From an uncultured Candidatus Bathyarchaeia archaeon (GTDB taxonomy: Archaea; Thermoproteota; Bathyarchaeia; TCS64): 48,734 nt of DNA. A program made the position numbers and the translations under genes. The notes beneath the pieces are model-generated. The model saw only the letters and a program-made list of their open reading frames with translations. It was not told the DNA's origin and did not search any database. The stretch is taken from assembly GCA_964447425.1 (NCBI GenBank), contig CAYUTB010000004.1, positions 1,559 to 50,292 on the forward strand, given 5' to 3'. Every line of letters begins with the position of its first letter. Position 1 is the first letter of the stretch. Shown here piece by piece: positions 10,772-48,734 of this stretch.

Positions 10772-10858
10772 TACGCTCCTAACTTAATGGAACTCTTTCA
10801 CCAAAGTACATCGAGGGAAATTATTAAAACTAACCCACGAAAAACACGTGTTTTTCAA

Positions 10859-11548: not shown

Positions 11549-11609
11549 AGGTCAACGATCCGATACCTGCTTATGAATTCTTTTAACATGGTTAACCGGT
11601 TATAGAACT

Positions 11610-12548
11610 ATGAAAATGGGCTCTCTCAACATCAATGATACTCCAAGAATCGTTATGTTCTGTGGAAAAGGTGGCGTAGGTAAAACAACCTGCGCCTCAG
11701 CTACGGCGTTTCATTATGCAGCGCTTGGCTACAAGACTCTGCTGATATCAACGGATCCTTCGCCATCGCTCTCAGATATACTTGAGCGGGATGTGAAAGG
11801 TGAGATCACCCCAATATCTGAGGTAGATAACCTTGAGGCGGTTGAACTTGATTATACTAGAGTTCTTGAGATGTGGATGGCGAAGTTTGGTGATGAAGTG
11901 TATGAGGTTATCTCATCTTTCCTCCCCGTGGGTAGAGAGATACTGGATTACATTGCTGGTGCGCCGGGGATCGATGAGGAGTTCGCCCTCAGCTACGTCT
12001 ATGAACTCTATACAAGCAATACATATGATGTGATTGTATGGGACACTGCGCCAGCGGGTGGCACGCTTTCACTGCTTCATATTCAGGAGACTTTTTACAC
12101 TCATATGCGGGACGCTGCAAAGCTCTATATTAGGCTCAAGGAGACTCTGGAAAACCTCACTGGGCGCGAGAAGAGAGACCCGTTGCGGATTATTCGTGAG
12201 TGGGAGTATTTGGCAAAAAAAGTGCTTGAGATGGTTAGATCTGAGAACACAACTGCGTTTCTGGTTACCATACCGGAGGGACTGGGGGTATCCCAGACTG
12301 AGCGCATAAAAATGGATTTTGAGAAATTCGGTATCCACATTGGCGGCGTCATTGTAAATAACCTGATACCGGAGTCTGTTCAAGGTGAGGCCGAGTTTCT
12401 CGATAAGAGGCGTCAGGTTCAAGCAGGTTATGTGAATATTCTCGATGAGAAATACAGTGATACATTGCTTGTGAAACTTCCTCTCCAAGAATATGAGGTG
12501 AAAGGGATCACTGCACTGAAAAAAGTGGAGAAACAGCTCTACGGTTAA
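11610..12548 (+). CDS. ArsA/Get3 (TRC40)-family P-loop ATPase
   Basis: 312 aa with the deviant Walker A GKGGVGKTT and a DTAPAGGTL switch (compare DTAPTGHTL of ArsA). Length and layout fit single-domain archaeal Get3/ArsA homologues. Confidence 0.85.
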   Translation: MKMGSLNINDTPRIVMFCGKGGVGKTTCASATAFHYAALGYKTLLISTDPSPSLSDILERDVKGEITPISEVDNLEAVELDYTRVLEMWMAKFGDEVYEVISSFLPVGREILDYIAGAPGIDEEFALSYVYELYTSNTYDVIVWDTAPAGGTLSLLHIQETFYTHMRDAAKLYIRLKETLENLTGREKRDPLRIIREWEYLAKKVLEMVRSENTTAFLVTIPEGLGVSQTERIKMDFEKFGIHIGGVIVNNLIPESVQGEAEFLDKRRQVQAGYVNILDEKYSDTLLVKLPLQEYEVKGITALKKVEKQLYG

Positions 12549-14281
12549 CTCAAGCCAAGATATTTGAAGAGATAGCTGACTGCGCCTTTAACACGAATAC
12601 CCGCCAACCCCGGCATCTTGAGCTCGCGTTTGGCTAAGATCGTTGATTTCTTCGCCTCATCTATCTCAAGCTTTAATGCATCATATTTCATCTGCCGTAT
12701 ATCCTGGTCACTTGTTGACTCTATTATCCCATCGATCCTGCGCATGATGTCTCTAGCCATATTCAACCCATAGTTGACTTTCTCGCCGTGAAGCTGAGTG
12801 GTAATGCCGACATCCATCTTGAGTTGATTCAGCCTGATCATTGCCTCATATGTTGTTTCGGCTACCTGATCACGGGTCATCCAGTCGGTGTGATAGCTCA
12901 GATACAGCTTCCAACTAGGCTGATAGAGCGCCTGCTTGTGTTCACGCAGAGTCGAATAGAGCCGTGTAAACCCATACTTGGATGGATTTTCATAGATCAT
13001 GCTACCCGGGTCAAGAAACGGCGCCATTGGGGAGGTGAATGAGAATATTTTCTTGTTATTATCCATCTTCTCGTATAGGTGTCTGGTGTAGTCGATGCTC
13101 TCCAGCGCTGATTCACTGGTCTGACCTGATAACCCCACCATGAAGTAGAGATCGATCTTTGTCGTCCCATGATCAAGAGCGTTTCTTATGGTGTCCTCCA
13201 TCTGGGCAGTGGTGTATGGTTTTCCCATTATCTTCCTTATCTTATCATCATGGCTCTCGGGGCTGATCTCAAGGGTCCAGTTATCGGTGCTACCCGCGAG
13301 CTTCTTCATCCAATCCATGGGCACCATATCGAATATCTCATAGGTGAGGGTGTTATCCAGTCCGGACTGCTTAATCCCATCAAGCACCTGTTCAGCCCAC
13401 TTGCGTCCACCCTGCCTGAGGTCTCCGATAAGGAAGATTGGCGCCTTGAAGTATTCGCTGATGACATTTATCTCCTCGACGAGTTTCTCTGCTGATTTAT
13501 GGGCTGGTCCGTCTCTGTTGAATGAGTTCTTGAAGGCGTAACAGCTTCCACCGCAGGTTATACAGTTGTATGCACAGCCCTTACAGGTCAAGACAGCGGT
13601 AAATGGGTAACTCATAAAGCTCTCGTAGGGCAATGTGCTCTCCAAGTCCCTGTGACGGAGAACAAGTTTGATGACCTCACCGTAGTCGATCCATAGGTCA
13701 TCCATCTCGGTGGGCACAAAAGTCATGGGGTTTATCCGCTTTCTGCCATCCTTCGTTCGCCATGTAAGGTTCTCAACGTTTTCGGGTTCTTTACCCGCCG
13801 ATATGTGGTTCATCAAGTCTAGAAGCGGCTTCTCGGTTGTATCACCCCTGAGGATGTAATCAATCTGAGGGAAATATTCGATAATCTCTTCATGGAAATA
13901 GGTGGCAGATAAACCGCCGAGAAGAATTGGGGCATCGGGGTGATGTTTCTTGACGATCTCAGCGAGATCAAGGCTCCCAGCTGCGTGGGGTAACCAGTGC
14001 AGATCAAAGCCGAAGACTTTTGCGTCGAGTCTTTTGATGAATTGCTCCACATCAAACTTTGGGTTCTTGAGCATCTTGACGGCTAGATTAACAATCCTCG
14101 CCTTGTACCCGTTCTGTTCAAGGTACCCCACCATGCTTACAAAGCCCAAGGGATACATCTCAAAGACAGGGGTCGATGGAACAACATCACTGATTGGGCC
14201 ATACATTGTAGGTCGTTTACGAAAATCATAGACGCTTGGGGCATGCAGCAGCACTAGATCGACGCAGGGCATAGACTCCAT
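12545..14281 (-). CDS. B12-binding-domain radical SAM protein
   Basis: 578 aa. An N-terminal cobalamin-binding-like Rossmann region is followed by the CxxxCxxC motif in CKGCAYNCITCGG. Its stop overlaps the ArsA/Get3 stop (TTAA, 12545-12548). Confidence 0.85.
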   Translation of the reverse strand: MESMPCVDLVLLHAPSVYDFRKRPTMYGPISDVVPSTPVFEMYPLGFVSMVGYLEQNGYKARIVNLAVKMLKNPKFDVEQFIKRLDAKVFGFDLHWLPHAAGSLDLAEIVKKHHPDAPILLGGLSATYFHEEIIEYFPQIDYILRGDTTEKPLLDLMNHISAGKEPENVENLTWRTKDGRKRINPMTFVPTEMDDLWIDYGEVIKLVLRHRDLESTLPYESFMSYPFTAVLTCKGCAYNCITCGGSCYAFKNSFNRDGPAHKSAEKLVEEINVISEYFKAPIFLIGDLRQGGRKWAEQVLDGIKQSGLDNTLTYEIFDMVPMDWMKKLAGSTDNWTLEISPESHDDKIRKIMGKPYTTAQMEDTIRNALDHGTTKIDLYFMVGLSGQTSESALESIDYTRHLYEKMDNNKKIFSFTSPMAPFLDPGSMIYENPSKYGFTRLYSTLREHKQALYQPSWKLYLSYHTDWMTRDQVAETTYEAMIRLNQLKMDVGITTQLHGEKVNYGLNMARDIMRRIDGIIESTSDQDIRQMKYDALKLEIDEAKKSTILAKRELKMPGLAGIRVKGAVSYLFKYLGLS

Positions 14282-14419
14282 AGATACGTGAGTATATTTT
14301 AATGCTCTTCAATTAGTCTCATTTTCTTAGATGTGTATGGTTACCCAAGGAAATAGGACACTAAGGCTGAAGGTTCTCAGAATTCTTTGAATGAAAGAAT
14401 AATAGGGGTGTGGAGGAGT

Positions 14420-15703
14420 TTATTTGAGCTGAATCAGGTGGACACTGCAGCTGATACATGGATCGTATGCACGGACCATAATTTCGATAGCCTTCTTGAT
14501 CTCCTCATCGGGTTTACCTGCTAGATTTTGAGCTATCACCCTAACATCTTTTTCGATATTTGCCACATTCTGAGCTGTGGGAGTTATGATGTTGGAAGCA
14601 GTTATTCTACCATCGTTATCGAAAGAGTAATCGTGGTACAGTAATCCCCTAGGAGCCTCAACAGCGTTGATTCCTCTTGACTCGAAAACGTCAAAGTCAA
14701 CCAAACCCTCGTTTCGGAGCCCATCTGCAATCAGTGAGTCTATTATACGAACTGAATGCTCAACATCGTGTACAAGCTCTATTGATTGGGCGAGATTGTT
14801 ACTGATACTATTCCTTATGTTCAAGAGGTGCGAATGCTCTTTATACAGTTCAGCCGCGGTCCCAACCAGTTTTTTATGATTGAAATAAATCCGTGGCAGC
14901 GCACCCACCATGAAAGACTTACCATTATACGTGGAAATCTTGGCATAACTATGCCTAACCACGGTCTCATTTGTAAGCTTCCTATACTGGTCTTCAGCCA
15001 CCCTGTGTCCATCAGATGTAAATACATGATCTCCCAAGTAGCCGAAGTTTTCACCTGAGTCTAGAGCATGCAATGTATTCTCTGACTCATTATAATCGGG
15101 CAAAGTAAAACCGCTGAGAAGCTGTACCGCAAGCACAGTCGTAGGTTGTACATTGATCAACTGTTTCTTGATTCGAAGTAACGCGTCCTCAGAGGGGACT
15201 TTTGAGAACCCACCTACGCGTTCATTCATACCATGAATTTCCCTACCACTCAGCTCGATGTGAATCATATTACCCGTTTTCTTGAGTTCAAGGGCAGCCT
15301 TCACTGCATCCAAGTGCTGAGTACTCATATGAATCGCGTCAGGGAATCCTAAAAAGTCTGGCAAAGCAAGCATGAAAACATGTAATGCGTGGCTTTCTAT
15401 GGCTTCTCCATGGATCAGTAAGTCCCTGAGTTTATGAGTCTGAGGAGTTGACTTCACCTTGAAGGCATTCTCTATTGCACCTATGCTTGCGAGACTGTGG
15501 CTCGCGGTGCAGATGGCACATATTCTCCTCGTTATATCCGGTATCTTATCGTAGTAGATTCCCTTGATAGCATGCTCGAAGAACCTTGGTCCCTCAAAGA
15601 CGTTGAATTTTACATCCATTACTTTAGAACCATCTAAGGTTACCTCGATTCCACCGTGCCCCTCGACCCGCGTCAGTTCATCGATCCTAATCTGTTTACT
15701 CAT
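14420..15703 (-). CDS. hydA: [NiFe]-hydrogenase large (alpha) subunit, group 3 (3b-like)
   Basis: 427 aa with the N-terminal metal-site motif RICAICTASH (RxCxxCxxxH) and the C-terminal motif DPCISCSVH. It is the last gene of a beta-gamma-delta-alpha operon. Confidence 0.9.
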   Translation of the reverse strand: MSKQIRIDELTRVEGHGGIEVTLDGSKVMDVKFNVFEGPRFFEHAIKGIYYDKIPDITRRICAICTASHSLASIGAIENAFKVKSTPQTHKLRDLLIHGEAIESHALHVFMLALPDFLGFPDAIHMSTQHLDAVKAALELKKTGNMIHIELSGREIHGMNERVGGFSKVPSEDALLRIKKQLINVQPTTVLAVQLLSGFTLPDYNESENTLHALDSGENFGYLGDHVFTSDGHRVAEDQYRKLTNETVVRHSYAKISTYNGKSFMVGALPRIYFNHKKLVGTAAELYKEHSHLLNIRNSISNNLAQSIELVHDVEHSVRIIDSLIADGLRNEGLVDFDVFESRGINAVEAPRGLLYHDYSFDNDGRITASNIITPTAQNVANIEKDVRVIAQNLAGKPDEEIKKAIEIMVRAYDPCISCSVHLIQLK

Positions 15704-16469
15704 TGCTCTTGCCTCCTAAGAAATCAGAGGAAATCTCCCCGCTGAACAGTTTGAGCCTATTAATGATATCCTCCTTGCTGTATCCAGAATCTAGCAGCAT
15801 CTTGTACTCAGCTGCGAAGTTTCCAACTCCCTCCACCGGACCTCGACAGCCTATGCAGTCAAGCCCTAATCCGGGGCACCTAGCATTACAGCCAGCCTTG
15901 ATTATAGGTCCGAGACAGGGTTTACCTGCTTCGGTGATAACACAAGGATATTCATTGATCTTGCATTCTACGCATACTGGATAGGTATACCTATTTGGTA
16001 AATCTCCGAGAAGCAACGATGTAATAGCCTTCAATGTCTCAGTCTTCTCGACGGGACATCCAGGTATTTCCAAGTCAACTTTAACATATTCTTTGATGGG
16101 TTTCGCAGTAACCGCGTCGAAATAATCTAGCTCAACACCGTAAACGTCCTTAAGCTTCTCTGCAAGAGTTGAGTCTTTGTTTCTCATGGCCTGTATGCAG
16201 CCCTCGATGGCGCAGTTACCAAAAGCTATAATGACCTTGGAGCGCTCTCTGATCTCCATCAATTTCTGTTTGTCGTGCTCTGTTGAGACAGAGCCCTCAA
16301 CGAGAGCTATGTCAACGGGTCCCAACTCCTTATAGCTACTTCCCTCCTGGAAGTCAACGATAACAAAATTACTCAATAGTTCAAGGAGGTCATCCTCCAT
16401 GTTAAGTATCTGAAGTTGGTCTCCCGCGCATCCGGTTAGGCTGAATATACCTAGTTTTGGTTTACTCAT
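15696..16469 (-). CDS. hydD: [NiFe]-hydrogenase small (delta) subunit, group 3
   Basis: 257 aa and Cys-rich (GCAGD, GNCA, PGCP, CVEC..., CNARCPGLGLDCIGC). It has no Tat signal, so it is cytoplasmic. It overlaps the alpha subunit start by 8 nt. Confidence 0.85.
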   Translation of the reverse strand: MSKPKLGIFSLTGCAGDQLQILNMEDDLLELLSNFVIVDFQEGSSYKELGPVDIALVEGSVSTEHDKQKLMEIRERSKVIIAFGNCAIEGCIQAMRNKDSTLAEKLKDVYGVELDYFDAVTAKPIKEYVKVDLEIPGCPVEKTETLKAITSLLLGDLPNRYTYPVCVECKINEYPCVITEAGKPCLGPIIKAGCNARCPGLGLDCIGCRGPVEGVGNFAAEYKMLLDSGYSKEDIINRLKLFSGEISSDFLGGKSNE

Positions 16470-38555: not shown

Positions 38556-39290
38556 TTGAATGGCGCAGTCTCAGTGTTATATGCCTTCTTTGTTGAAAAA
38601 CTCCCATACATTACCATAGCGGTCTTCTCGATAGGAATGCTTCTAAGGGTTCAAAGATGGCGGAACGCACCAAAAGATCTTCATACTCCAAAGATGGACG
38701 TTGTTGAATCAATCAAATACATCGTGCTAGACGTGATGCTATTCAGAAAGACCTTCAAAAGAGATAAACTCACTTGGCTTCTTATCTTCGCATTCCATGG
38801 CAGCATAGGTGGAATACTGTTTGGCCACATGAGGGGATTCCATCTCTGGTCAGCCTCACTATTTGATCCATTGGGTCACTGGATGGTTGATTTTATGATT
38901 CATACGTTGCCCGTTTACATGGGGTGGCTACTGATTGGATCCACTTTTCTGCTCCTTGTTAGGAGAATGAGGATCGAGGACAAGCAGCTCAGCTCATTTA
39001 CAAACGACTATGTTGCGTTGTTGATTGTGCTTCTCGCAGCGATTGTGGGTCAGGGGATGAGGCTGTTTCCGCCGGAAGCGTTGCCTACTGAGATCTATAA
39101 TGTGGTCTTTATTCCAAGGCTCATTGTGCTGCATCTTGAGGCGGTGCCGAGTTATCACTGGTTCCACTGGCACGTACTGCTCACACAGGTATTCGTAATG
39201 TATATGCCCTTCAGTAAATTCATACACATACTCACGGGGGTAATTTCCCCAGCCATCTATGGTTCAAGGAGGAAAGAACTTGGCATCTAA
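38556..39290 (+). CDS. NarI/HdrE/DsrM-family di-heme b-type membrane subunit
   Basis: 244 aa with 5-6 TM helices and conserved His in the helices (FAFHGSIGGILFGH, HWFHWH). It has a TTG start and is followed by a CCG-domain FeS protein. Confidence 0.7.
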   Translation: MNGAVSVLYAFFVEKLPYITIAVFSIGMLLRVQRWRNAPKDLHTPKMDVVESIKYIVLDVMLFRKTFKRDKLTWLLIFAFHGSIGGILFGHMRGFHLWSASLFDPLGHWMVDFMIHTLPVYMGWLLIGSTFLLLVRRMRIEDKQLSSFTNDYVALLIVLLAAIVGQGMRLFPPEALPTEIYNVVFIPRLIVLHLEAVPSYHWFHWHVLLTQVFVMYMPFSKFIHILTGVISPAIYGSRRKELGI

Positions 39291-40512
39291 CATACAGGAT
39301 AAGGCAAAGGAGGCTCTGGGTAAATTCACGCGTCGCCAACTCATGGAGTTGGACACTTGCAGCCACTGTGCATTATGCACCGAGAATTGCCCAGCATATA
39401 ATGAGTCAAAGAATGTACTGCATGCACCGGGGGTACGCGCCTCAAAGGTACTGAAGCTCTTCGATAAGAAACACAGCTTCTGGACCAAGATATTCGGTGA
39501 GAAGGAGATCACAGAGAAGGACATAGCGGATCTAGCTGAGAGCACGTATCACTGCAGCCTCTGCGGCAGGTGTATGGAGTCATGCCCATTCGGGTTCCAG
39601 ACCCATGAGCTGTGGGTGAGGATCAGGGAGATCGTTGACGCGATGGAGGCGACTCCCGAGAACGTTGCACGGCTCGCTGATCTCCTTGACGAGAACATGA
39701 ATCCCTATGGGTTGGAGCCTGATACGCGTCTTGACTGGAGCTTATTCACTGATCTGGATGATGCGCCGGAGCTTTCTGAGGCGGAGATCGCGTATTTCGT
39801 CGGCTGCACCACAGCGTATAAGGGTGCAAACCATGAGGTGGCTTTCTCCATATGCTCTATTCTGGAGAATCAGGGAGAAAACTGGACGCTGCTCGGGGAG
39901 GATGAATGGTGCTGCGGGGCACCCAGCATAATGGCGGGTAAAGAAGAAGAGGCTAAGAAGTATGCTGAGCACAACGTGGAGCTACTGGAGTCAAAGAAGG
40001 TTAAACGGGTAATCACTGGCTGCGCTGGATGCTACAGGATGTTTAAGTTTGAGTATCCGGTGATCCTCGGGAGAAAGCCGGACTTTGAGGTACTTCACGC
40101 TGTCCAATACTTGAATGAACAGCTCAGCAGCGGTAAGCTCAAAGTGGAGAAAGGCAACGAGAAGATCATCTACCATGATCCATGTGAGCTGGGGAGACTC
40201 AGCGGCGTCATCAGGGAGCCACGTGAAGCGTTATCACATCTGACCTCGGATATGATTGAGTTTGATGAACATGGCGTGGACTCCAAGTGTTGCGGAGGCG
40301 GAGGTCTATTGCAGGCCGTGGATAATGAGATGCGTCTCAACATCGTGAAGGAGAAGCTGGATGAAGCCGTGGAGAAGGGAGCCACGATATTGGTCTCTGC
40401 TTGTCCGGCGTGTAAGCTGGCTTTTGTGGATGGTGTGCGTGAGTTCAAGCATGATATCGAGGTCCTTGATATTCATGAACTCGTGGCAAAGAGGCTTGGC
40501 GTGTTAGGTTAA
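39259..40512 (+). CDS. HdrD/DsrK-like iron-sulfur protein (4Fe-4S dicluster plus two CCG domains)
   Basis: 417 aa with CSHCALCTENCP and CSLCGRCMESCP, then CCG motifs (WCCGAP, KCCGGGG) and ACPACK. The ATG at 39259 overlaps the upstream gene by 32 nt, and an alternative start exists at 39343. Confidence 0.8.
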   Translation: MVQGGKNLASNIQDKAKEALGKFTRRQLMELDTCSHCALCTENCPAYNESKNVLHAPGVRASKVLKLFDKKHSFWTKIFGEKEITEKDIADLAESTYHCSLCGRCMESCPFGFQTHELWVRIREIVDAMEATPENVARLADLLDENMNPYGLEPDTRLDWSLFTDLDDAPELSEAEIAYFVGCTTAYKGANHEVAFSICSILENQGENWTLLGEDEWCCGAPSIMAGKEEEAKKYAEHNVELLESKKVKRVITGCAGCYRMFKFEYPVILGRKPDFEVLHAVQYLNEQLSSGKLKVEKGNEKIIYHDPCELGRLSGVIREPREALSHLTSDMIEFDEHGVDSKCCGGGGLLQAVDNEMRLNIVKEKLDEAVEKGATILVSACPACKLAFVDGVREFKHDIEVLDIHELVAKRLGVLG

Positions 40513-40513
40513 G

Positions 40514-41383
40514 ATGAATGAGCAGGCGTATGACTATGGAGTACTCTTGAAGCCAAAGGTACTCCTGGCTATGCTTGCATTATATTTGACTACTTTTTTC
40601 ACCAGCTCCATATACTCTGGTGGCTTAAATTTTGATTATCTTGAGTTTTTCATAGGTTTTATGGCGGTGGCGTTTAGCGTCAGCGGCGCCAATGCGTTGA
40701 ACTGTGTGTATGACAGGGATATTGATTCATTGATGGTGAGGACAGGTGGGCGCCCACTGGTGCGTGGTTCCATTAGTGTGGCTGATGCGAGTTTCTTCAG
40801 CTGGACCATGATGGCTGCGTCGGCTGTGCTCGCGGTGTATCTGGGTCTCATACCGGTTATTCTGCTCGTTGAGGGAGCTGGTAGCTATCTGTTGCTCTAT
40901 ACGGTGCTATTGAAGAGGAAGACCAGCATCAATGTATTATTTACTGCGCCCAGTGTGGCTGCTCCGGCTTGGTTCGGCTGGTATCTCGGAGGAGCTCCCC
41001 TGATCCCTGTGGGGCTGGTTATGGGGTTATTGGTGGCTATCTGGGGTCCACTGCATCTCTGGAGTATCGCGTTTGCGTATAGCAAGGACTATGAGCGTGT
41101 GGGTGTGCCCATGTTTCCCAGCCTTGTGAGCCGCGAGCAGGCGATTAGAGGGATTTTGTTTGCCCTTGGATTGCTTCTTGGGTCTAGTTATCTGCTGGCG
41201 CTTTGGGTGGATTCGGCGTGGTATCTTGTAGGAGTCTCTGCGTTGAACCTCGTGTTGGTGGTGGCGGGAGTTAGACTGTATCGCTCCGAGAGTAACCATG
41301 ATGGGTGGGTCTTGTTTAAGTTGACCTCGCCGTATATTATCTTGGTTTTCCTGATTTTTATGTTTAGCCAGTACCTTGTTTAG
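40514..41383 (+). CDS. ctaB: protoheme IX farnesyltransferase (heme O synthase)
   Basis: 289 aa in the UbiA superfamily, with CtaB/CyoE-specific motifs NALNCVYDRDIDSLMVRTGGRPLVRG and LHLWSIAFAYSKDYERVGVPMFP. It starts 1 nt after the HdrD-like stop. Confidence 0.85.
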   Translation: MNEQAYDYGVLLKPKVLLAMLALYLTTFFTSSIYSGGLNFDYLEFFIGFMAVAFSVSGANALNCVYDRDIDSLMVRTGGRPLVRGSISVADASFFSWTMMAASAVLAVYLGLIPVILLVEGAGSYLLLYTVLLKRKTSINVLFTAPSVAAPAWFGWYLGGAPLIPVGLVMGLLVAIWGPLHLWSIAFAYSKDYERVGVPMFPSLVSREQAIRGILFALGLLLGSSYLLALWVDSAWYLVGVSALNLVLVVAGVRLYRSESNHDGWVLFKLTSPYIILVFLIFMFSQYLV

Positions 41384-41430
41384 GTATGGAGGGGTGGTAT
41401 GTAGGTGGTTTCCTTCATCGTTTTTAATGG

Positions 41431-42411
41431 GTGTTCATTGGTTTATGTATGAGATGGAAGGCTCACACCCGGACAGCTGAGAAGGTGCTGGGGGTTTTCA
41501 GTGCCTTGCATTTTGATAAGTATGAGAAGGATCTGGTGAATGGGGTTATCTCGCCGGATAACGAGGATACGCGGTCTCATTATGTGGGACGGGAGCAGAC
41601 CGCGTTGGATTATGTTGGGCGGGCTCGTGAGAGGCGGTTGGCGTATGATACTGCTGGGTGTTTTTTCCAGTTGGGGGTGGCGTTTCATTATATTCAGGAT
41701 ATGTGGACGGGTGTTGGGCCGGACTGTGAGGGGCATGAGGTTTATCTTGATCTGATTAACCGCTGTGAATTATTGGATGTCCATGAGAGCCTTGAACGGT
41801 ATTACCCGGTGGGGCGGAGGAGGGTTCTTGATCAGTTCCGGGGGCTGGAGAAGAGGCTTTCTAAGCCCGTGGAGTCTGAGGCTGAGCTGCGGGAGCTGGT
41901 TTTGATGAGGCGGCCTTTTGAGGGGTCTGCTTTTCTTGACCTGAACCTGAGTTTCAGGGTGTGTTATCGTGTGGCTGAGATGGTGTTGAGGACCATGTTG
42001 AATGTAAGCCTACAGGAGTCGTTGGAGCTGCTGCAGAACGAGTACGTTGAGAAGATACGGGATGCTGAGGCGGCTACGGTGGGGGAGATCGAGGCGGTGG
42101 AGGCTGAAGTGGGGCGTCTCGCATTGGGTGATTCTCAGCTTGGAGGCGTTAAGCAGTGGGGTCTTGAGAGGAAGCTCAGTGGTTTGTGTCGTGATTATGA
42201 GGCTAGGCGTCATTTGAGGCCGGTGGTTGCGGGGTTTGAGAGAAAGGTGGAGGAGCTCTGTAAGCCTCATGTTGGGTGGTATAATATCGATAGGCCGTCT
42301 CTGGATGTGGATAAGATACTGGCTCCATCGAAAGAAGAGGCAATTCAGGCTCAAGATGCTAGTGCTCTTGAGGATGAGCAGGTGCCTGATGCTTTTATTC
42401 TGTTATCATAA
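41431..42411 (+). CDS. hypothetical protein with atypical G/T-rich coding strand; possible zinc-dependent phospholipase C-like N-terminal region
   Basis: 326-aa ORF with a GTG start (alternative ATG at 41449, MRWKAHTRT). W..H near the N-terminus and GVAFHYIQD weakly resemble Zn-PLC/S1-P1-type motifs. The rest is Glu/Arg/Leu-rich and helical. The function is not supported beyond this. Confidence 0.35.
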   Translation: MFIGLCMRWKAHTRTAEKVLGVFSALHFDKYEKDLVNGVISPDNEDTRSHYVGREQTALDYVGRARERRLAYDTAGCFFQLGVAFHYIQDMWTGVGPDCEGHEVYLDLINRCELLDVHESLERYYPVGRRRVLDQFRGLEKRLSKPVESEAELRELVLMRRPFEGSAFLDLNLSFRVCYRVAEMVLRTMLNVSLQESLELLQNEYVEKIRDAEAATVGEIEAVEAEVGRLALGDSQLGGVKQWGLERKLSGLCRDYEARRHLRPVVAGFERKVEELCKPHVGWYNIDRPSLDVDKILAPSKEEAIQAQDASALEDEQVPDAFILLS

Positions 42412-42692
42412 ATTGTCTTATCAGATCGAGGTTTTACTTGATTTGCCCGTTTACTCTACCAGTTTTTTACTGTTATTGTGATCTATTCTGGGTTGTTCTG
42501 GGGCTGGTTTCGGCGTTGGAGGTTTGTTATGGGTTGGGATGTGTATACCCCCCCTCCCCCTTCAGCGGGATATCGGCTCTCACGGGATCTGATTACTGCT
42601 ACTTTACCCATCAGACGTAGGTATTCTGAGTATGGACAGGGGGTCAAGAGCTGTTACGCACTAGGTATTTATTTTCAGATTTTATCTTCAAT

Positions 42693-42827
42693 ATGATGCC
42701 TGAGATTGAGATCCCGGAGGAACTCTACGAGATATTAATGAGGGAATGCGAGGAACGAGGGGCTTCTATGGATGAGTTGATTTCTGAACTGATAATAAAA
42801 TTTGATAGATGTTTTAAACCCACATGA
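42693..42827 (+). CDS. 44-aa ribbon-helix-helix-like protein (not in the ORF track)
   Basis: It runs from ATG 42693 to TGA 42825-42827 and translates to MMPEIEIPEELYEILMRECEERGASMDELISELIIKFDRCFKPT. The beta-strand (IEIPEEL) followed by two helices matches the pattern of CopG/RHH antitoxins. It ends 23 nt upstream of the HNH gene. Confidence 0.45.
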   Translation: MMPEIEIPEELYEILMRECEERGASMDELISELIIKFDRCFKPT

Positions 42828-42850
42828 CAATGAATACCGAAGGGATTTAA

Positions 42851-44002
42851 TTGGCTGATTTTCATATTCGTGATTTGAATCAGATTCTTGAACGTGACGC
42901 GACGGATACCACCTATAAGTTCGCTTTGTTGAGGGCGGTTTCTGATGTTTGTCAGCGGCATGATCCTTTACGAGAAAGTGATGGATGGGTCTGGTTTCCA
43001 ACTGGGTATTTGGTTGAGAGGTGGTTGGAGTATTATTATCCGATAATTGATAGTGCGTTGTTTATCCCCCAGAAAGGGTCTGAGAAGACCCTTGATCAGC
43101 CCGGTTATAAGATTGCGTTCAGGGCTTTATTCAAGAAGATTACGGATTATTATAAGGAATGTGGAGATTTTAGGGAATTTTGGATCGATTATAAGAAAGG
43201 TCAGGTTCCTAGGGAGATTAATGGAGTGTGCCTTGAACTCGCTAAGAGTTTGTGGTATACTATTACTCGGTATCCAATGAAGCATCTCGGTTACTCGGCT
43301 TCTGGTGAACATTATGTATTCTTTAGATATTCGAATAGATCGGTAATTAGTAAGGATACAATTTTTTCGCGGGCTTTATTGTTTGATGAGTTTGGTGAGT
43401 TTTCCGTTAACTCAGGTTTCTATGATACTCTTCGTTTGTTCGGTTCTTATATTTCTGGGGAATATTCAATATTGAATAAATGGGTTGATTTTTCGGTCAA
43501 ATCGGATTCCTCGCGAAAGGTTGATCCTTCTTATGTTTTTTCTGTTTTGAACATGAGACCAGAGTCAGAGAGGGATGTGGGGGATGTGAGGAGTTTTTAC
43601 ATAGATTTGTTTAAGGAGCAGAGATACTTGGAATGTGTTTGGTCGGGTACTCGTATTAATTCTTGGAATAATGTGCATATTGACCATGTTATTCCGTTTT
43701 CTCTCTGGGGTAATAATGATTTATGGAATCTTTTACCTGCGCATCAGCGATATAATTCTCAGAAAAGTGATTTGATTCCTGCTATTTCTTTGCTTGAAAA
43801 TCGGAAAGAGCAAATTATTTCTTATTGGGAGTTATTGGAAAACGGTTTCAATTATAGATATAACAAGGAGATTGAGTATAATCTTCTCGACTCAAAACGT
43901 CTAGACACATCAATGGATACTATTTTTAATAAATTAATTAAAAAATGTGAGTATCTAATTGATGTCAGGGGGTTTTCCGAGTGGAATTTGAAGGTGCGAT
44001 AG
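42851..44002 (+). CDS. His-Me finger (HNH) nuclease-domain protein with an unrecognised ~270-aa N-terminal region
   Basis: 383 aa with a TTG start. The C-terminal motif HIDHVIPFSLWGNNDLWNLLPAHQRYNSQKSD (nt 43676-43771) has the DH...N...N..K layout of cysteine-less HNH domains (Cas9-HNH / GmrSD-DUF1524 style). Confidence 0.75.
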   Translation: MADFHIRDLNQILERDATDTTYKFALLRAVSDVCQRHDPLRESDGWVWFPTGYLVERWLEYYYPIIDSALFIPQKGSEKTLDQPGYKIAFRALFKKITDYYKECGDFREFWIDYKKGQVPREINGVCLELAKSLWYTITRYPMKHLGYSASGEHYVFFRYSNRSVISKDTIFSRALLFDEFGEFSVNSGFYDTLRLFGSYISGEYSILNKWVDFSVKSDSSRKVDPSYVFSVLNMRPESERDVGDVRSFYIDLFKEQRYLECVWSGTRINSWNNVHIDHVIPFSLWGNNDLWNLLPAHQRYNSQKSDLIPAISLLENRKEQIISYWELLENGFNYRYNKEIEYNLLDSKRLDTSMDTIFNKLIKKCEYLIDVRGFSEWNLKVR

Positions 44003-44320
44003 ATGATTAGAGTATATAACAAAGCAATTCGAGACAAAATACCAAAGATCATTGAAGAATCGGGATCAACGCCCAAAGTAAAAAAACTGAATGACAATGA
44101 TTTTTTAAAGGAACTAACAAAAAAAATCGATGAAGAGGTAAATGAATTTAAAGAAAGCAAAAAAGCTGAAGAACTTTGTGATCTTATTGAAATTGCTTAC
44201 AGAATTGCAGAATTATATGGTGTTTCAAATATGGAACTAGATCAAATTCGATCTGAAAAGAATCTGAAACGAGGAAAGTTTGATACGAATTTATTCTTAA
44301 TCCAAGTACAAGATAGCTAA
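44003..44320 (+). CDS. MazG-superfamily all-alpha NTP pyrophosphohydrolase (house-cleaning type)
   Basis: 105 aa. The motifs YNKAIRDKIPKII, EEVNEF, EELCDLIEIAY and KRGKF match the small 'phosphoribosyl-ATP pyrophosphohydrolase-like/MazG-like' family. Its ATG directly abuts the HNH stop. Confidence 0.8.
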   Translation: MIRVYNKAIRDKIPKIIEESGSTPKVKKLNDNDFLKELTKKIDEEVNEFKESKKAEELCDLIEIAYRIAELYGVSNMELDQIRSEKNLKRGKFDTNLFLIQVQDS

Positions 44321-44574
44321 AGTCCAAGCTCCTTGATCATTACTTTCTTTGATAATCGATAACAATTGGTTGATGTTTCTTTATCTGTGACTATGCCTTC
44401 ATGAACGATTATATTTCTAATTTGTCGGAAGTAATTTAATTCCTCATAAAGATCGGTTTCTAGAATATTTGATAGATTTAATGTTTCTAGTACAGGATAT
44501 GTAGTCCAATTGGAGGTATTTTTCCAAAGCCTGTTTTCTTTTTCAAACATAAAAAAAGTATAACACATATTCAT
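44317..44574 (-). CDS. mini-HEPN domain protein (Rx4H motif)
   Basis: 85 aa. The sequence LNYFRQIRNIIVHEG contains R-N-x3-H (nt 44401-44418), the HEPN RNase signature. Its ATG overlaps the PLD gene stop (ATGA at 44571-44574). Confidence 0.55.
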   Translation of the reverse strand: MNMCYTFFMFEKENRLWKNTSNWTTYPVLETLNLSNILETDLYEELNYFRQIRNIIVHEGIVTDKETSTNCYRLSKKVMIKELGL

Positions 44575-45398
44575 TGCTTGATTAAATCGTTGAAGGATTC
44601 CATTGCTCTTTGTATATTTGTGGGTTCAACTGTTACAATTCCAGCTTCCCATAATTTTCCAGCAACGGATTCACTATAGAGATTCATTGAGGAAGCACTC
44701 AGCACTTGGTTGTCGAGAATGAAGATTTTTGCGTGGACTGAGTCATTATAGTGAACCTCAATACTTGAATCATTCAATCTTTTATGATATTTTTCTTTAT
44801 CTCGAATTCTTTTTCCTGACCAATTGCTTTCTGTTTTTTGCGTAACAAGAACAACTTTAACTCCTTTTTCACTGGCTTGAATAAGACTATCACTAAATGC
44901 ACACGGTTCGACGTAAGGATTAACAACCAATATCTCGTTTCTAGTTCTGGGAATTAAATCACGTAAAAGCGAATCAAGCATGTCACCCTTGAGAAATAGA
45001 TGCGTGCTATTTTTCCCCATCGAGATATTCTTGAACTTAATCCATTCAAACATTCGCTCTCTCAAATAATTCTGATCTTTGAGGTTTTGTCTCTGAAGTA
45101 AGAGGCTCTGTAATCGCCCTTCCTCTTTTTTTTCCTCAGCCAATTCCTCAAGTTTTTCCTTTGCCCAATCTTCACCGAAATGTGCTTTGTATTTCAACCA
45201 AAGCTCGTATTCTACTTTGAAACCACCAGGTGCATCCTCTATTATATTTTGTTTTTCAAGTGCCTTGAGGATAGGTTTCAGTTGCTCGTTAGTAAAACCA
45301 AGATAATCTCGAATTTCACCCCATTGACGCAAGTTCTCTACTGAGATAGCTTGAATTATTTTTCCTTCAATGGTTCCAAGGTAGGGTAAGTTACTCAA
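44571..45398 (-). CDS. winged-HTH / coiled-coil / PLD-family (single HKD, Nuc-like) nuclease
   Basis: 275 aa. It has an N-terminal wHTH-like region (IIQAISVENLRQWGEIRDYLGFTNEQLKPILKALEKQNII), a charged linker, and an HxKx4D motif HAKIFILD (nt 44712-44735) followed by SASSMNL. Confidence 0.75.
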   Translation of the reverse strand: MSNLPYLGTIEGKIIQAISVENLRQWGEIRDYLGFTNEQLKPILKALEKQNIIEDAPGGFKVEYELWLKYKAHFGEDWAKEKLEELAEEKKEEGRLQSLLLQRQNLKDQNYLRERMFEWIKFKNISMGKNSTHLFLKGDMLDSLLRDLIPRTRNEILVVNPYVEPCAFSDSLIQASEKGVKVVLVTQKTESNWSGKRIRDKEKYHKRLNDSSIEVHYNDSVHAKIFILDNQVLSASSMNLYSESVAGKLWEAGIVTVEPTNIQRAMESFNDLIKQ

Positions 45399-45445
45399 AT
45401 TAATACATAAAACTCCAAATCGTTATAAAAATACGATGGATGATA

Positions 45446-45580
45446 CTAGGTACAAATCTTGTCAATGGCATCATCCAATACCAGCTGAGGCTGCATATAC
45501 TGCCTGATCACATAGGCATCGTATCCTGCTTTCTCATCTCTGCACTGAGCTGCCTCAACGGGACCAAAACCAAACACCAT
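45446..45580 (-). pseudogene. copy A of a repeated gene 3'-end fragment (44-47 codons still open)
   Basis: The minus-strand translation MVFGFGPVEAAQCRDEKAGYDAYVIRQYMQPQLVLDDAIDKICT* parallels the C-terminus of the ORF at 48505..48734. Confidence 0.7.
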
Positions 45581-45607
45581 AGCAAGTCCCTAATAAAAAT
45601 CTTCAAT

Positions 45608-46396
45608 TCATAGTATAAGCTCTAGCTCATTGAGAAATGTAGTAACTCTTACATATACATCATTACGGGTAGCTCCATTCGAGCCTATGAAACGTGCAGC
45701 TGATACACACCCATACCTCGTCGGCGAAGAAAAACCGCCTTTAATATTACGCAGTGCCTGTAGCACCCTTGAATTATCTTTGTCATCGCCAGTCAGATCA
45801 TTAAACAGTTTAGCAGCCTTCTGTGGAGAACCCATACAAAACCCAGAAACACTATAAATATCATAACTATCCTTATCCTTCAACCTACCCAAAGCATTCC
45901 CCTTCGTCGTCAAAACACCAACAATATCAGCTATATCAATCGAAAAAACCGCATCACCACCCAAAGGAAGACCCGCCTCCAAATCGTATTCAAAGAAATG
46001 ATCAAAAACAACAGAAATACCAGGAATCAAACATGCTCTAAGACTCTCCTGAATCTCCACCAGAAACCCTTGCTCTAGTGCAGGCTCAGGCTCTGTGAGT
46101 AAGTCCAAATGCAAAGGAAAAGTCCCGGACTTATCCATTGTATGTATTTTTCTTTCAAACCTAAAAGGGTTCTCCGTGATCTCATATCCAAGACCTTCCA
46201 CTATATCCTTAATATTCTCATACCGGGGAAGAATAGAAGGTCGTAAAACAAGATCAATGTCTATTGAGCCACAGTGATCATAATAGTTTTTAGTAAGAAA
46301 ATAGGGAGCCCATCCACCGACAAGAACAAATTCTCCCCGATAACTATTCAACGCCATACAAAGCTCCAGCAACGCCCCCTTTGACGCCTCAGTCAA
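45608..46396 (-). CDS. AbiEii/DUF1814-like nucleotidyltransferase toxin
   Basis: 262 aa with a minimal NTase motif in VLVGGWAPYF...GSIDIDLVL. It has a TTG start 4 nt after the AbiEi-like gene, the canonical AbiEi-AbiEii order. Confidence 0.65.
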   Translation of the reverse strand: MTEASKGALLELCMALNSYRGEFVLVGGWAPYFLTKNYYDHCGSIDIDLVLRPSILPRYENIKDIVEGLGYEITENPFRFERKIHTMDKSGTFPLHLDLLTEPEPALEQGFLVEIQESLRACLIPGISVVFDHFFEYDLEAGLPLGGDAVFSIDIADIVGVLTTKGNALGRLKDKDSYDIYSVSGFCMGSPQKAAKLFNDLTGDDKDNSRVLQALRNIKGGFSSPTRYGCVSAARFIGSNGATRNDVYVRVTTFLNELELIL

Positions 46397-46400
46397 ATTC

Positions 46401-47081
46401 CTATCGTACAGATTCAGCCACGCCTAAAAGATACTCACTCCACTGCTTCTTAATATCTTCTAGCAGATTCTCGGCAGCCTCAACTCCCCTAGCGGGGTAA
46501 TTTTTTAGATCAACGAATAACTGGACATCTGAAACAATCCTTAACCCATTAACAATCTGAGTCTTATAGAAGACCTCCTCATCATAAGGAAACACAAGCT
46601 TAACGTTTCCATCTTTCTCAACGGGTACTAAGTCCAGATCCACGACTACATTCTTCAAATCATTCTTATTCTTAACATACATCTCAACGGTTCTCGGTCG
46701 AACATTAGGAGAAACCAAAAACGCACCAGCAAGAGTAGTTAAAGCATACTCCACCTTAACGTTCCTAAGCTTGTTCAACACGTTCTCAATATCATTATCA
46801 TACGTGTAATAATCCATGAACTCGTTCGCAAACACATACTGATGATAACTAGCCCACCGCTCCAACAACCCAACAGGATTAACCAGTTCAAGCAACTCAG
46901 TCTCATCTCTAATAACATAACCCAAACTCAACAAAGAAGCAACAACAGCATGCGTATACCCCACACTAACATCAATCTCCTTCGCCAACGCACGGATACT
47001 CCATCCTTTACCCGGATTAGCCAAGAGACCTCTAAGTATCCGTGATGCCTTATGTTCAAAGATGTTGTTTACTTTCCGCAT
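46401..47081 (-). CDS. AbiEi-like wHTH antitoxin/transcriptional regulator
   Basis: It has the wHTH RILRGLLANPGKGWSIRALAKEIDVSVGYTHAVVASLLSLGYVIRDE plus a C-terminal domain. I use ATG 47081 (MRKVNNIF), which lies about 25 nt downstream of a TATATATA box. The ORF-track TTG start at 47138 runs into the operator palindrome. Confidence 0.65.
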   Translation of the reverse strand: MRKVNNIFEHKASRILRGLLANPGKGWSIRALAKEIDVSVGYTHAVVASLLSLGYVIRDETELLELVNPVGLLERWASYHQYVFANEFMDYYTYDNDIENVLNKLRNVKVEYALTTLAGAFLVSPNVRPRTVEMYVKNKNDLKNVVVDLDLVPVEKDGNVKLVFPYDEEVFYKTQIVNGLRIVSDVQLFVDLKNYPARGVEAAENLLEDIKKQWSEYLLGVAESVR

Positions 47082-47104
47082 CAACTGAAAACTGTTCGCT
47101 AAAG

Positions 47105-47157
47105 TATATATATGTTCGCGGTTTGCGAACGTTCGCAATTAGCGAACATATTTAAAC
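47105..47157. promoter_or_regulatory. four GTTCGC/GCGAAC half-sites (nested palindromes) flanked by TATA-like boxes: candidate AbiEi operator / divergent promoter
   Basis: The sequence is tatatatATGTTCGCggtTTGCGAACGTTCGCAAttaGCGAACATatttaaa. The half-sites lie at 47114-19, 47125-30, 47131-36 and 47142-47. The perfect 16-bp palindrome spans 47123-47138 and the outer arms span 47112-19/47142-49. TATATATA is on the left and ATATTTAAA on the right. Confidence 0.6.
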
Positions 47158-47269
47158 CACAGCAAACACACCCAAAAAATATGAATATTCAACTCCACAG
47201 ACTATCCCTAAAAGAGTTCAGGATCGAAACCCCTAAAAACATACACACACATACCCACACAGAGCAAAC

Positions 47270-47509
47270 ATGGGCACTAAAAACATCTCAATCTCAGAGG
47301 AAGCATACCAAAGACTAGCAGCCCTGAAACAACCAAACGAAAGCTTCACACAGGTAATAAACCGCCTCACAAAAAAACGATCAATACTAGAACTCGCAGG
47401 AACCCTCACAAACCAAGAAGCAGCCGAGATACAAGAAAACATCAAAAAACTACGCCAAGAAAGCACCAATAGAATCACAGCCACCATAAACGAAGTAGAA
47501 ACCCCATGA
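47270..47509 (+). CDS. vapB: archaeal VapB-type (DUF217-like) antitoxin
   Basis: 79 aa. The N-terminus MGTKNISISEEAYQRLAALKQPNESFTQVINRL matches the archaeal VapB family pattern. It overlaps vapC by ATGA. Confidence 0.8.
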   Translation: MGTKNISISEEAYQRLAALKQPNESFTQVINRLTKKRSILELAGTLTNQEAAEIQENIKKLRQESTNRITATINEVETP

Positions 47510-47898
47510 TAGCAGACACCACATTCATCATAGACCTAATGCGCAACAACCCCGACGCCATATCCAAGGCACAGGAAATAGAGAAAAACAACATACCACT
47601 CATCATCACAGCACCCACGTTATTCGAACTCAGCGTAGGCATATCTCTCAGCAAAAAATCCCAACAAGAAAAAAAACAGATACACGAAATCCTAGACACC
47701 CTACCCTTTCAACCACTGGACTACAAGTCATCTCAGGAAGCAGGCTACATCTATGGAGACAAACAGAAAAAAGGCAACAAGATTGACCCACAGGACGCAA
47801 TGATCGCCGGGATCGCTAGATCAAGCGGAGAAAAAATCCTGACAAGAAACACCAAACACTTCCAAGACATCGAAGGAGTCACCATAGAAACATACTAA
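47506..47898 (+). CDS. vapC: PIN-domain ribonuclease toxin VapC
   Basis: 130 aa with acidic PIN residues in IADTTFIID, TLFELS and DPQDAMIAGIA. Confidence 0.85.
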   Translation: MIADTTFIIDLMRNNPDAISKAQEIEKNNIPLIITAPTLFELSVGISLSKKSQQEKKQIHEILDTLPFQPLDYKSSQEAGYIYGDKQKKGNKIDPQDAMIAGIARSSGEKILTRNTKHFQDIEGVTIETY

Positions 47899-47949
47899 AC
47901 GATGCATAGAAAAGGAGTAAAAACTCCAAAGAATAGACAATAAAAAAGA

Positions 47950-48120
47950 TTAGGGAAAGACCTTGTCAATGGCATCATCCAGTACAAGTTTAGGTTGCAT
48001 ATACTGCCTGATCACATAAGCATCATAGCCAGCCTTCTCGTCCCTGTACTAAGCCGCAATAATGGGTAACCCAAGCACAACAGCTGGGGCACCGCTGTCA
48101 CCAATCAGGGGACCAACATA
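47950..48120 (-). pseudogene. copy B of the repeated gene 3'-end fragment (in-frame stop)
   Basis: The minus-strand translation ...GPLIGDSGAPAVVLGLPIIAA*YRDEKAGYDAYVIRQYMQPKLVLDDAIDKVFP* parallels 48505..48734. It carries a TAG where copy C has Gln and a one-codon deletion. Confidence 0.7.
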
Positions 48121-48230
48121 TCTATCAAAAGGGGCATTAATTCGATTCACCAATACAGGTGTTCGATTTTTACCAAACGTAAAACTACACATTTAATAAA
48201 CTGTAATACGCACGCAATACAAGACACAAC

Positions 48231-48440
48231 TTGAACACAATAAGCATACGTCTACCCGACAAACTCCTAGAAGAAATAGACAAACTAGTCACAGAAGGCA
48301 CCTACGCAAGCCGAACCGAAGCACTAAGAGACGCAGCGAGACAGATGCTACGAGCACAAAAAGGCATGCTACAGGGAAAACCCCCCCAGATACCCAAAGA
48401 CGAGATACTAAAAGAAACCCTCAAAGACCTAGATCCCTAG
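48231..48440 (+). CDS. CopG/RHH-family DNA-binding protein (orphan antitoxin-like)
   Basis: 69 aa with a TTG start. The sequence MNTISIRLPDKLLEEIDKLVTEGTYASRTEALRDAARQML is a canonical ribbon-helix-helix N-terminus. No partner toxin ORF is adjacent. Confidence 0.7.
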   Translation: MNTISIRLPDKLLEEIDKLVTEGTYASRTEALRDAARQMLRAQKGMLQGKPPQIPKDEILKETLKDLDP

Positions 48441-48504
48441 GATCAAAAACCCTCACACCAGTCCTACCAGCAGTGAAATAAAAGTATAATAAAAAAAATG
48501 TCAT

Positions 48505-48734
48505 CTAAGTACAGATCTTATCAATGGCGTCATCCAGCACAAGCTGAGGCTGCATATACTGCCTGATCACATATGCATCATAGCCTGCTTTCTCATCCCT
48601 GTACTGAGCAGCCTCAATTGGGCCTAATCCAAGAACAACTGCCGGGGCGTTGCTGTCACCGATCAAGGGACCCAGAGACCCAGTAGGAGTAGCAGTCAGT
48701 CCGTAATCTGTGATCACCTTGATACTGGGATACC
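48505..48734 (-). CDS. 3' end of an unidentified conserved gene running off the window (copy C, presumably the intact gene)
   Basis: The frame is open from the window edge to TAG (48505-48507). It translates to ...VITDYGLTATPTGSLGPLIGDSNAPAVVLGLGPIEAAQYRDEKAGYDAYVIRQYMQPQLVLDDAIDKICT. I cannot assign a family. Confidence 0.5.
   Translation of the reverse strand, partial: YPSIKVITDYGLTATPTGSLGPLIGDSNAPAVVLGLGPIEAAQYRDEKAGYDAYVIRQYMQPQLVLDDAIDKICT

Follow-up and report, generated by a model that had tools for sequence, protein, structure and literature searches.

Stacked 3ʹ ends of a viral capsid gene among toxin–antitoxin and defence genes in a Bathyarchaeia genome

The right end of a 48,734-nucleotide (nt) stretch of DNA from an uncultured Candidatus Bathyarchaeia archaeon (GenBank assembly GCA_964447425.1, contig CAYUTB010000004.1, positions 1,559 to 50,292), here called the window, carries three stacked copies of the 3ʹ end of one gene, with toxin–antitoxin (TA) and other accessory genes between and behind them. 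The repeated piece is the 3ʹ end of a gene for an HK97-fold major capsid protein (MCP). This target gene is not a host gene but the capsid gene of a virus-derived module, and the site just behind its stop codon is a hotspot for cargo in related loci. The array is best read, with moderate confidence, as built by sequential displacement through recombination anchored in homology, a model already proposed for Rhs and type VI secretion system (T6SS) effector–immunity arrays. As part of that same reading, the right edge of the window would enter a small virus-derived capsid module of the Bathyarchaeia genome.

The repeated gene end and the hotspot behind it

All three copies lie on the minus strand as direct repeats, copy A at 45446–45583, copy B at 47950–48120 and copy C at 48505–48734. 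An earlier note, made from the sequence alone, had described them as copies of a single gene end, and a formal MAFFT alignment together with a repeat search bears out that description. The copies have the last 45–76 codons and the stop codon of one gene in common, and the core present in all three (128 nt; family members starting at 45446, 47950 and 48505) is 74–86% identical. With a full-length homologue as the tblastn query, E values are 4e-19 for A, 7e-20 for B and 2e-35 for C, which excludes chance similarity. Copy C comprises the last 76 codons and TAG of the MCP gene, is open in translation to the window edge and aligns by tblastn to MCP residues 239–313. By alignment and tblastn, copy A is a stub of codons 263–313 plus TAG, its frame still open for the 47 codons that the note had counted, 45 of them homologous. 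Copy B, which ends near 48120, is a decayed stub of codons ~252–313 with the in-frame TAG and one-codon deletion already described, both seen in alignment and translation. The A/T-rich tail attributed to every copy reduces to a T-rich run, similarity otherwise stopping at the stop codon. The peptide said to be retained in all three is not identical, since the residue before RDEK is C in A in place of Y, and B reads QPK in place of QPQ, with a TAG before YRDEK. A 23-nt block is identical in the three copies (45492–45514, 47996–48018 and 48551–48573).

Comparison was made with 166 fetched loci, labelled L001 onward. Six independent short contigs from other samples (L053–L058) reproduce the order AbiEi-VapBC-B-RHH-C at 98–99.9% identity, RHH being a ribbon-helix-helix gene, and the arrangement is therefore not an assembly artefact. 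The junction class of copy B is also present in L140, and the ortholog of copy B is L060 rem3. VapC was found only on contigs of less than 2 kb that break at the repeats, and a database look-up returned no record for the RHH protein.

Assignment of the gene rests on its full-length relatives. Pfam gave no match for the 75-residue fragment of copy C alone, and the first homologue search returned only fragments of 43–114 residues. These short matches briefly suggested a small stand-alone gene, a candidate that was dropped once a reconstructed query found full-length proteins. One fragment, in L003, directly follows an open reading frame (ORF) with a weak Phage_capsid match, and the two are parts of one frameshifted gene. 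Rejoined as a 313-residue query, they retrieved 332 relatives, mostly of 307–320 residues, many with precomputed PF25209 or PF05065 assignments and several bearing the name Bathyarchaeota; by genome scan, 38 of 42 loci lie in Bathyarchaeia metagenome-assembled genomes. PF05065 scores 26 bits on the L121 protein against a cut-off of 24.2, and the closest relatives fall below that cut-off at 19–21 bits. Pfam Phage_capsid and Phage_capsid_4 matches occur among the full-length homologues, which have portal, cement and tail-tube genes as neighbours. In intact viral contigs, portal, scaffold and cement genes stand on one side of the MCP gene and connector, beta-helix and tail-tube genes on the other; portal, scaffold/protease, cement and connector genes also stand beside it in L046–L051, L121, L033 and L087, that is, in relatives and outside the window. 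An AlphaFold2 model of the MCP (pLDDT 66, pTM 0.62) matched encapsulins, the MCP of Haloferax tailed virus 1, and the capsids of T7 and of gene transfer agents with a Foldseek probability of 1.0. It is because of the Pfam family matches, the head-gene neighbours and this fold match that the repeated piece is assigned to an HK97-fold MCP gene. A PDB sequence search with an MCP profile gave no match, and IMG/VR held only distant MCP relatives, at most 57% identical. Since the full-length MCP of L087 is 97% identical to copy C over the last 75 residues (88% in DNA), copy C is probably the end of an intact gene that runs off the window.

Across the fetched loci, tblastn found 5ʹ-truncated MCP ends in about 20 distinct loci, with two or three copies each in the window, L001, L059, L060, L096, L121, L149 and L166. 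As the earlier note had expected, the site behind the stop codon is a hotspot with alternative cargo in relatives. The genes that directly follow an MCP or stub stop codon include those for PLD-family proteins (behind copy A in the window, L089 and L091), AbiEi_4/AbiEii (L001, L059 and L149), a TIR-WD40-Roc protein (L001), Hachiman HamA with a helicase (L059), other AbiE-like pairs (L060 and L121), C5, D12 and N4/N6 DNA methylases and an S-adenosylmethionine methyltransferase (L096, L151, L143, L088 and L090), a ParB_N protein (L004) and VapBC (L139). In L033, the position is taken by an HNH endonuclease module itself. Read in MCP orientation, the window runs from the MCP gene (copy C) through the RHH gene, copy B, the VapBC and AbiE-like pairs, copy A, and a PLD nuclease gene with an 85-residue ORF to the 105-residue and HNH genes. 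L060 is orthologous to this island, with its RHH 81% and its AbiE 80% identical, and whole-cassette gains and losses separate the two. The same combination of stacked, same-orientation 5ʹ-truncated ends, a conserved anchor and variable cargo is seen in the window, L001, L059, L060, L096, L121 and L149.

Origin of the stubs

Divergence between the window copies, estimated by the Nei–Gojobori method (NG86) as synonymous (dS) and nonsynonymous (dN) substitution, is mostly synonymous: dS is 1.22 and dN 0.054 for A versus C, 0.91 and 0.084 for B versus C, and 0.90 and 0.133 for B versus A. Because dS is 0.9–1.2 with dN/dS of 0.04–0.15, the copies diverged while still belonging to functional capsid genes, and they are no recent duplicates made in place. 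This allele-type divergence agrees with the proposal of the note that incoming DNA brought its own version of the gene end, the copies being displaced 3ʹ ends of one gene, left by serial insertion behind it. The starts of the stubs vary. Lying 110–320 nt before the stop codon, they form at least 14 junction classes whose upstream flanks are unrelated, and none of the classes compared starts between codons 90 and 200.

Several stubs are hybrids. Four loci (L001, L059, L090 and L095) share one AbiEii–stub junction to the nucleotide, and the neighbour downstream is different in each; AbiEii dS among these loci is 0.12–0.39, yet stub dS reaches 1.3–1.8. Between the L001 and L059 stubs, the 33 junction-proximal codons have a dS of 0.059 and a dN of 0.080, and this part is young and drifts neutrally (dN/dS about 1.4), whereas the 45 distal codons have a dS of 1.38 and a dN of 0.064. 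Almost from the junction onward, the L090 stub follows the full-length L088 allele, and L090 and L059 are 95% identical across AbiEii and 73% identical across the initial 60 nt of stub. The proximal part of a stub moves along with its cassette, the distal part is supplied by the capsid gene of the recipient, and the switch point between them varies, all of which argues for homologous rather than site-specific recombination.

A strain-level example is given by L053, which over 1.7 kb shares 99% identity with the window, being identical over 48390–48567 and then differing at 18 positions in the next 73 nt. Its 'C' copy (1839–1979, corresponding to window 48505–48642) resembles B in its 5ʹ part and C in its 3ʹ part, with the switch inside the 23-nt block, and has the same TAG as copy B. 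In this strain, the capsid gene end beside the RHH gene is a pseudogene or another stub. The chimera would not come from assembly, 23 nt of identity being too short at k = 141, a value taken from the contig names.

Under sequential displacement, new cargo would arrive on related DNA that also bears the MCP gene or its 3ʹ part. The resident MCP gene would act as the homologous anchor that pairs with the incoming DNA, and the far side would be closed by an illegitimate joint or by another crossover, this one within an older stub. The incoming 3ʹ end would complete the resident gene, and the old one, 110–320 nt long, would be shifted downstream behind the new cargo. Repeats of this process would build the stack seen in the window, from copy C through RHH, B, VapBC and AbiE, A and PLD to HNH, the oldest unit lying at the greatest distance from the gene. 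A locus with a full-length MCP gene followed at once by a PLD gene (L089) has the state expected before the displacement of copy A, and the synteny of L091 also supports this placement of the PLD gene. Ordinary homologous recombination within the stub could moreover bring an existing cargo–stub unit into any genome that has the capsid gene. Direct repeats would delete the DNA between them unless an addiction module penalised its loss, and the AbiE-like and VapBC modules probably protect the cassettes in this way. TA cassettes have been argued to counter loss in chromosomal integrons. An AbiE-like pair or VapBC is present in 8 of 10 inter-repeat intervals, and the non-TA defence genes (TIR, Hachiman and the window PLD gene) lie after the last stub. 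What we infer is the joining step (anchor plus illegitimate joint), the sequence in which the events took place and the role of addiction; the identity of the gene, the hotspot, the variable stub ends, the allele-type divergence and the hybrid stubs with their shifting switch points are observed.

Several points weigh against sequential displacement. No donor–recipient pair has been reconstructed, so the illegitimate joint and any microhomology are not seen, and the confinement of the stubs to the last third of the gene has no explanation. The displaced unit of L121 also takes in connector and HTH (helix-turn-helix) genes, and the AbiE unit of L090 and L095 has no MCP copy upstream; because of these loci, deletions must also have shaped the arrays. 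Beyond 48734, the unseen DNA may hold a recombinase, or copy C may itself be a stub. The mosaic structure of the stubs could in part reflect later gene conversion rather than the insertion crossover.

Decay of tandem elements, in which complete capsid elements or proviruses lay side by side and deletions left MCP 3ʹ ends with accessory genes, is unlikely as the general explanation but contributes in some loci. In L121, for example, the second unit consists of a stub, connector and HTH genes with 65–75% amino acid identity to the first. Internal deletions and insertions of capsid modules do occur (L114, L094 and L060 rem1), and three 'long' stubs starting at codons 65–89, tried as displacement products, proved to be such internal changes instead. 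However, decay would require at least 14 independent deletion endpoints in the last third of the MCP gene and never in codons 90–200. In intact viruses, the MCP gene has a mid-genome position with tail genes rather than TA genes behind it, and a single AbiE–stub junction is found with different distal alleles and neighbours.

The earlier note had instead proposed site-specific integration into the gene end. Serial integration of small integrative or cis-mobilisable elements, with an attP that mimics the MCP 3ʹ end and an integrase acting in cis or trans, seems quite unlikely, and an integrase mechanism for the arrays is not supported. Direct repeats of the MCP 3ʹ end do flank each module, and the last ~100 nt are kept in all stubs, but the stubs begin at 14 or more different points and the crossover position varies inside one junction class. 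As to an att core, the 23-nt block is identical in the window copies and contains the one strain-level switch of L053; the longest block common to the copies of an array, however, is placed differently in each of six arrays, ending 46, 39, 6, 0, 82 or 4 nt before the stop codon, and these six arrays have no common crossover core. A search for att-like direct repeats around the capsid modules of L121 and L033 found only MCP and connector duplications. The sequence right of the window, where an integrase might be sought, is unseen. Within the window, the absence of an integrase remarked on in the note holds, with no recombinase or transposase among the cargo and 20 other candidate-sized ORFs; none was found among ~50 cargo proteins of related loci or among the neighbours examined, and precomputed Pfam assignments list no recombinase within 10 kb in L001, L059 and L060. 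No tRNA gene that might serve as an alternative target is present in the window.

Other known routes were considered and rejected. An integron is contradicted by the lack of IntI or any integrase and of attC sites, the separators being capsid-gene fragments. For a diversity-generating retroelement, no reverse transcriptase was found, and the differences between copies are mainly at synonymous third positions and of all types. Three causes were tried for the clustered stub lengths. Truncation of the reverse-transcription type does not suit cassettes in which promoters and opposite-strand genes are found; a pac-site cut zone does not agree with the sizes of the cassettes, which match no headful; and HNH-driven homing lacks anything that would link the HNH gene to cleavage.

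The stubs themselves appear non-functional and free of selection, since their cassette-linked part drifts neutrally and several have stop codons (copy B and stubs of L096, L121, L140 and L149). Many others keep an intact frame and a near-consensus protein sequence, a conservation that reflects replacement from functional alleles. Although this conservation and the six independent AbiE-like junctions that abut a co-oriented stub might suggest a working part of the cassette (a capsid peptide that poisons assembly, a sensor or decoy for AbiE, or a terminator or 3ʹ untranslated region of the AbiE operon), the neutral drift, the stop codons and the replacement from functional alleles make such a role highly improbable.

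The capsid module and the cargo of the window

The MCP gene belongs to a compact module found in many Bathyarchaeia contigs. In order, the module encodes an HTH protein, portal, scaffold/protease, cement, MCP, a 116-residue connector and a 76-residue HTH protein, after which follows an opposite-strand pair that is present or absent by locus, a 105-residue protein and an HNH endonuclease of 380–390 residues. No terminase, tail, replication or integrase genes were recognisable in the compact modules examined. Instances of this head-only form are found in L121 (3900–8900), L033 (7300–13000), L149 (8000–10700), L156, L161, L003 (1–2650) and L096 (1–1700). The head-only module recurs in differing chromosomal contexts, and purifying selection acts on its MCP. 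Instead of being left by random provirus decay, the module may be an element of a domesticated or satellite-like kind. Some modules are damaged, by a 3.2-kb insertion between the scaffold gene and MCP codon 65 (L094 4328–7496), a 2.2-kb deletion from portal to MCP (L114 7557–7580), an internal MCP deletion from codon 100 to 272 (L060 9958–10174), or MCP frameshifts (L003 1664–1679 and L013 10618–10640).

At the base of the stack, on the plus strand of the window (42670–44320), lie an HNH endonuclease gene (42851–44002; Pfam HNH_4, E = 8e-8) and a 105-residue gene (44003–44320), in a region with 68% nucleotide identity to L001 12909–14537. In the capsid element, this pair makes up the conserved distal module, and it is itself movable. 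It follows the connector and 76-residue HTH genes in L149 (8910–10400), L156 and L161, comes directly after the MCP stop codon in L033 (10965–12451), and lies downstream of cargo in the window, L001 and L091. The HNH domain resembles only that of Cas9, and the protein could be a packaging HNH endonuclease, a homing endonuclease or a defence protein.

The cargo of the window is as follows. The sole gene between copies C and B is the orphan RHH gene of the CopG type (48231–48440, plus strand; Pfam RHH_1, E = 1.5e-8), whose copy in L060 adjoins an MCP stub. Between B and A, where the note had placed AbiE and VapBC, VapBC and AbiEi are supported by Pfam. The plus-strand genes for the VapB antitoxin (47270–47509; VAPB_antitox PF02697, E = 1.4e-18) and the VapC/PIN toxin (47506–47898; PIN PF01850, E = 1.6e-11) overlap by 4 nt and have the characters of a type II TA system. 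The AbiE-like pair on the minus strand (45608–47138) consists of an AbiEi-type regulator or antitoxin of 245 residues (46401–47138; Pfam AbiEi_2, E = 2.7e-8) and a minimal nucleotidyltransferase of 262 residues (45608–46396). The latter has a GG...DIDL motif of nucleotidyltransferase type and no Pfam (including AbiEii), PADLOC or NCBIfam match. The stop codon of the pair lies ~25 nt before copy A, and its L060 counterpart is at 14071–15162.

Two perfect GTTCGC-N5-GCGAAC palindromes and a half site, identified by reading the sequence and by an inverted-repeat search, lie between the divergent AbiEi and VapB genes (47094–47147) and look like a putative AbiEi operator. Since the annotated TTG start at 47138 overlaps them, AbiEi probably begins at the ATG at 47081. 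Similar GTTCGG-N6-CCGAAC palindromes occur upstream of the L140 stubs, and a related single motif upstream of the L145 stub. Within the AbiEi gene (46478–46514), Rfam reported CRISPR-DR57 at 22.8 bits against a gathering threshold of 39 (E = 0.16), a single sub-threshold copy that is most likely due to chance; Rfam gave no other match, of the attC type or otherwise. Behind copy A, on the minus strand, lie a PLD-family nuclease-like gene (44571–45398; Pfam PLDc_2, E = 5e-16), which is DrmC/MkoC-like by PADLOC and DpdK/DrmC-like by NCBIfam, both below cut-off, and the 85-residue ORF (44317–44574).

Related loci carry larger cargo as well. L001 has an 876-residue WD40-Roc/Ras-TIR protein (10263–12893), and the Hachiman cargo of L059 spans 10401–14002. 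L121 has a 719-residue AAA_23 ATPase and a 300-residue partner beside a HerA-like ATPase (11347–16108). In L096 (2463–8885), a C5 methylase and an HhH-GPD protein precede four large proteins, three without a Pfam match and one with only a sub-threshold RHH_8 match.

The other 40 kb of the window consists of host respiratory and hydrogenase genes. To the left of the island, three genes (39259–42411) have a strong G+T skew of the coding strand and a third-position GC content of 57–61%. They encode a CCG-domain protein of 417 residues, recognised by its motifs, a UbiA-family protein, assigned from sequence, and a 326-residue protein with a weak Zn-PLC match. As these genes are skewed and the window differs from L001 once past the HNH module, foreign DNA may reach as far as about 39 kb.

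Comparison with known arrays and implications

Illegitimate recombination facilitated by homology was proposed as the first step for T6SS effector–immunity arrays of V. cholerae and for arrays of Rhs orphans (PMC5361080; Jackson et al. 2009 as cited there). Like these and contact-dependent inhibition (CDI) loci, the Bathyarchaeia arrays have a conserved anchor gene followed by variable cargo, each gain would shift the previous 3ʹ end downstream to leave same-orientation 5ʹ-truncated orphans, no integrase seems to be involved, and finished arrays would be exchanged by ordinary homologous recombination. Unlike in those systems, where the anchor is a toxin gene and the variable part is the tip of the protein itself, the anchor here is a viral capsid gene in an archaeon and the variable part comes after the stop codon. 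The cargo consists of TA and antiviral genes rather than toxin–immunity pairs, and the displaced pieces have no coding role.

Other systems are similar in part. Integrative and conjugative or mobilisable elements accrete with cis-mobilisable elements at the 3ʹ ends of genes or tRNA genes, as ICESt1 and ICESt3 do at fda, by means of a tyrosine integrase and a fixed core. There too, tandem modules lie between direct repeats that hold the target 3ʹ end, and the incoming element restores the gene; here, however, no integrase was found, repeat length varies, and there is no fixed core. Prophages and phage satellites contain defence hotspots, such as those of P2 and P4 and the systems encoded by phage-inducible chromosomal islands, in which variable antiviral or TA cargo likewise occupies a fixed position between conserved virus-derived genes. 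Those hotspots leave no stacked stubs of the flanking gene, and the present case differs further in its archaeal host and head-only module. In integron arrays, promoter-poor cassettes are stacked so that the newest adjoins the insertion point, and TA cassettes are thought to stabilise them. The ordered stack of promoter-poor cassettes, the position of the newest unit and the TA cassettes are features in common, whereas IntI and attC are lacking here and the separators are fragments of a coding gene.

The repeat-bounded arrays are also skewed in composition. On the MCP-sense strand, a G+T excess of +0.2 to +0.47 extends across the whole array whatever the gene orientation (window 45400–48734, L001 7000–10500, L059 8000–10300, L060 10000–15000 and L090 5500–8000), and, read on the coding strand of each gene, third codon positions of VapB, VapC and RHH have an AT skew of 0.8 to 0.92. 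No such skew is seen in the distal cargo (PLD, TIR and Hachiman), and the window from 40500 to 44000 has a mirror-image skew. The pattern suggests that the array has long been transcribed in one direction or replicated asymmetrically; a scan for sigma-70 promoters and terminators was uninformative, the host being an archaeon. A more speculative possibility, which we hold only tentatively, is that a head-only, satellite-like capsid element uses its capsid gene as a universal homology arm through which integrase-free TA and defence cassettes spread, each with 110–240 nt of captured capsid gene and held by addiction, the array perhaps being one strand-asymmetric unit of transcription or replication. 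If so, transcription or replication as one unit would account for the extreme G+T skew.

Displacement arrays and defence hotspots of virus-derived elements are both already known in kind; what is new is their occurrence in another domain of hosts with another anchor gene. In the accessible parts of the published work on Bathyarchaeia viruses and proviruses found by literature search, this architecture is not described. On the reading favoured here, an archaeal defence island can grow and swap its cargo without a dedicated recombinase, using a conserved viral gene as an anchor, and the sequential displacement logic of bacterial toxin loci would extend to virus-derived elements and to archaea. 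5ʹ-truncated capsid-gene ends next to a stop codon offer a search handle for new archaeal defence and TA genes, and the recurrent head-only capsid module of Bathyarchaeia is possibly a domesticated or satellite-type element.

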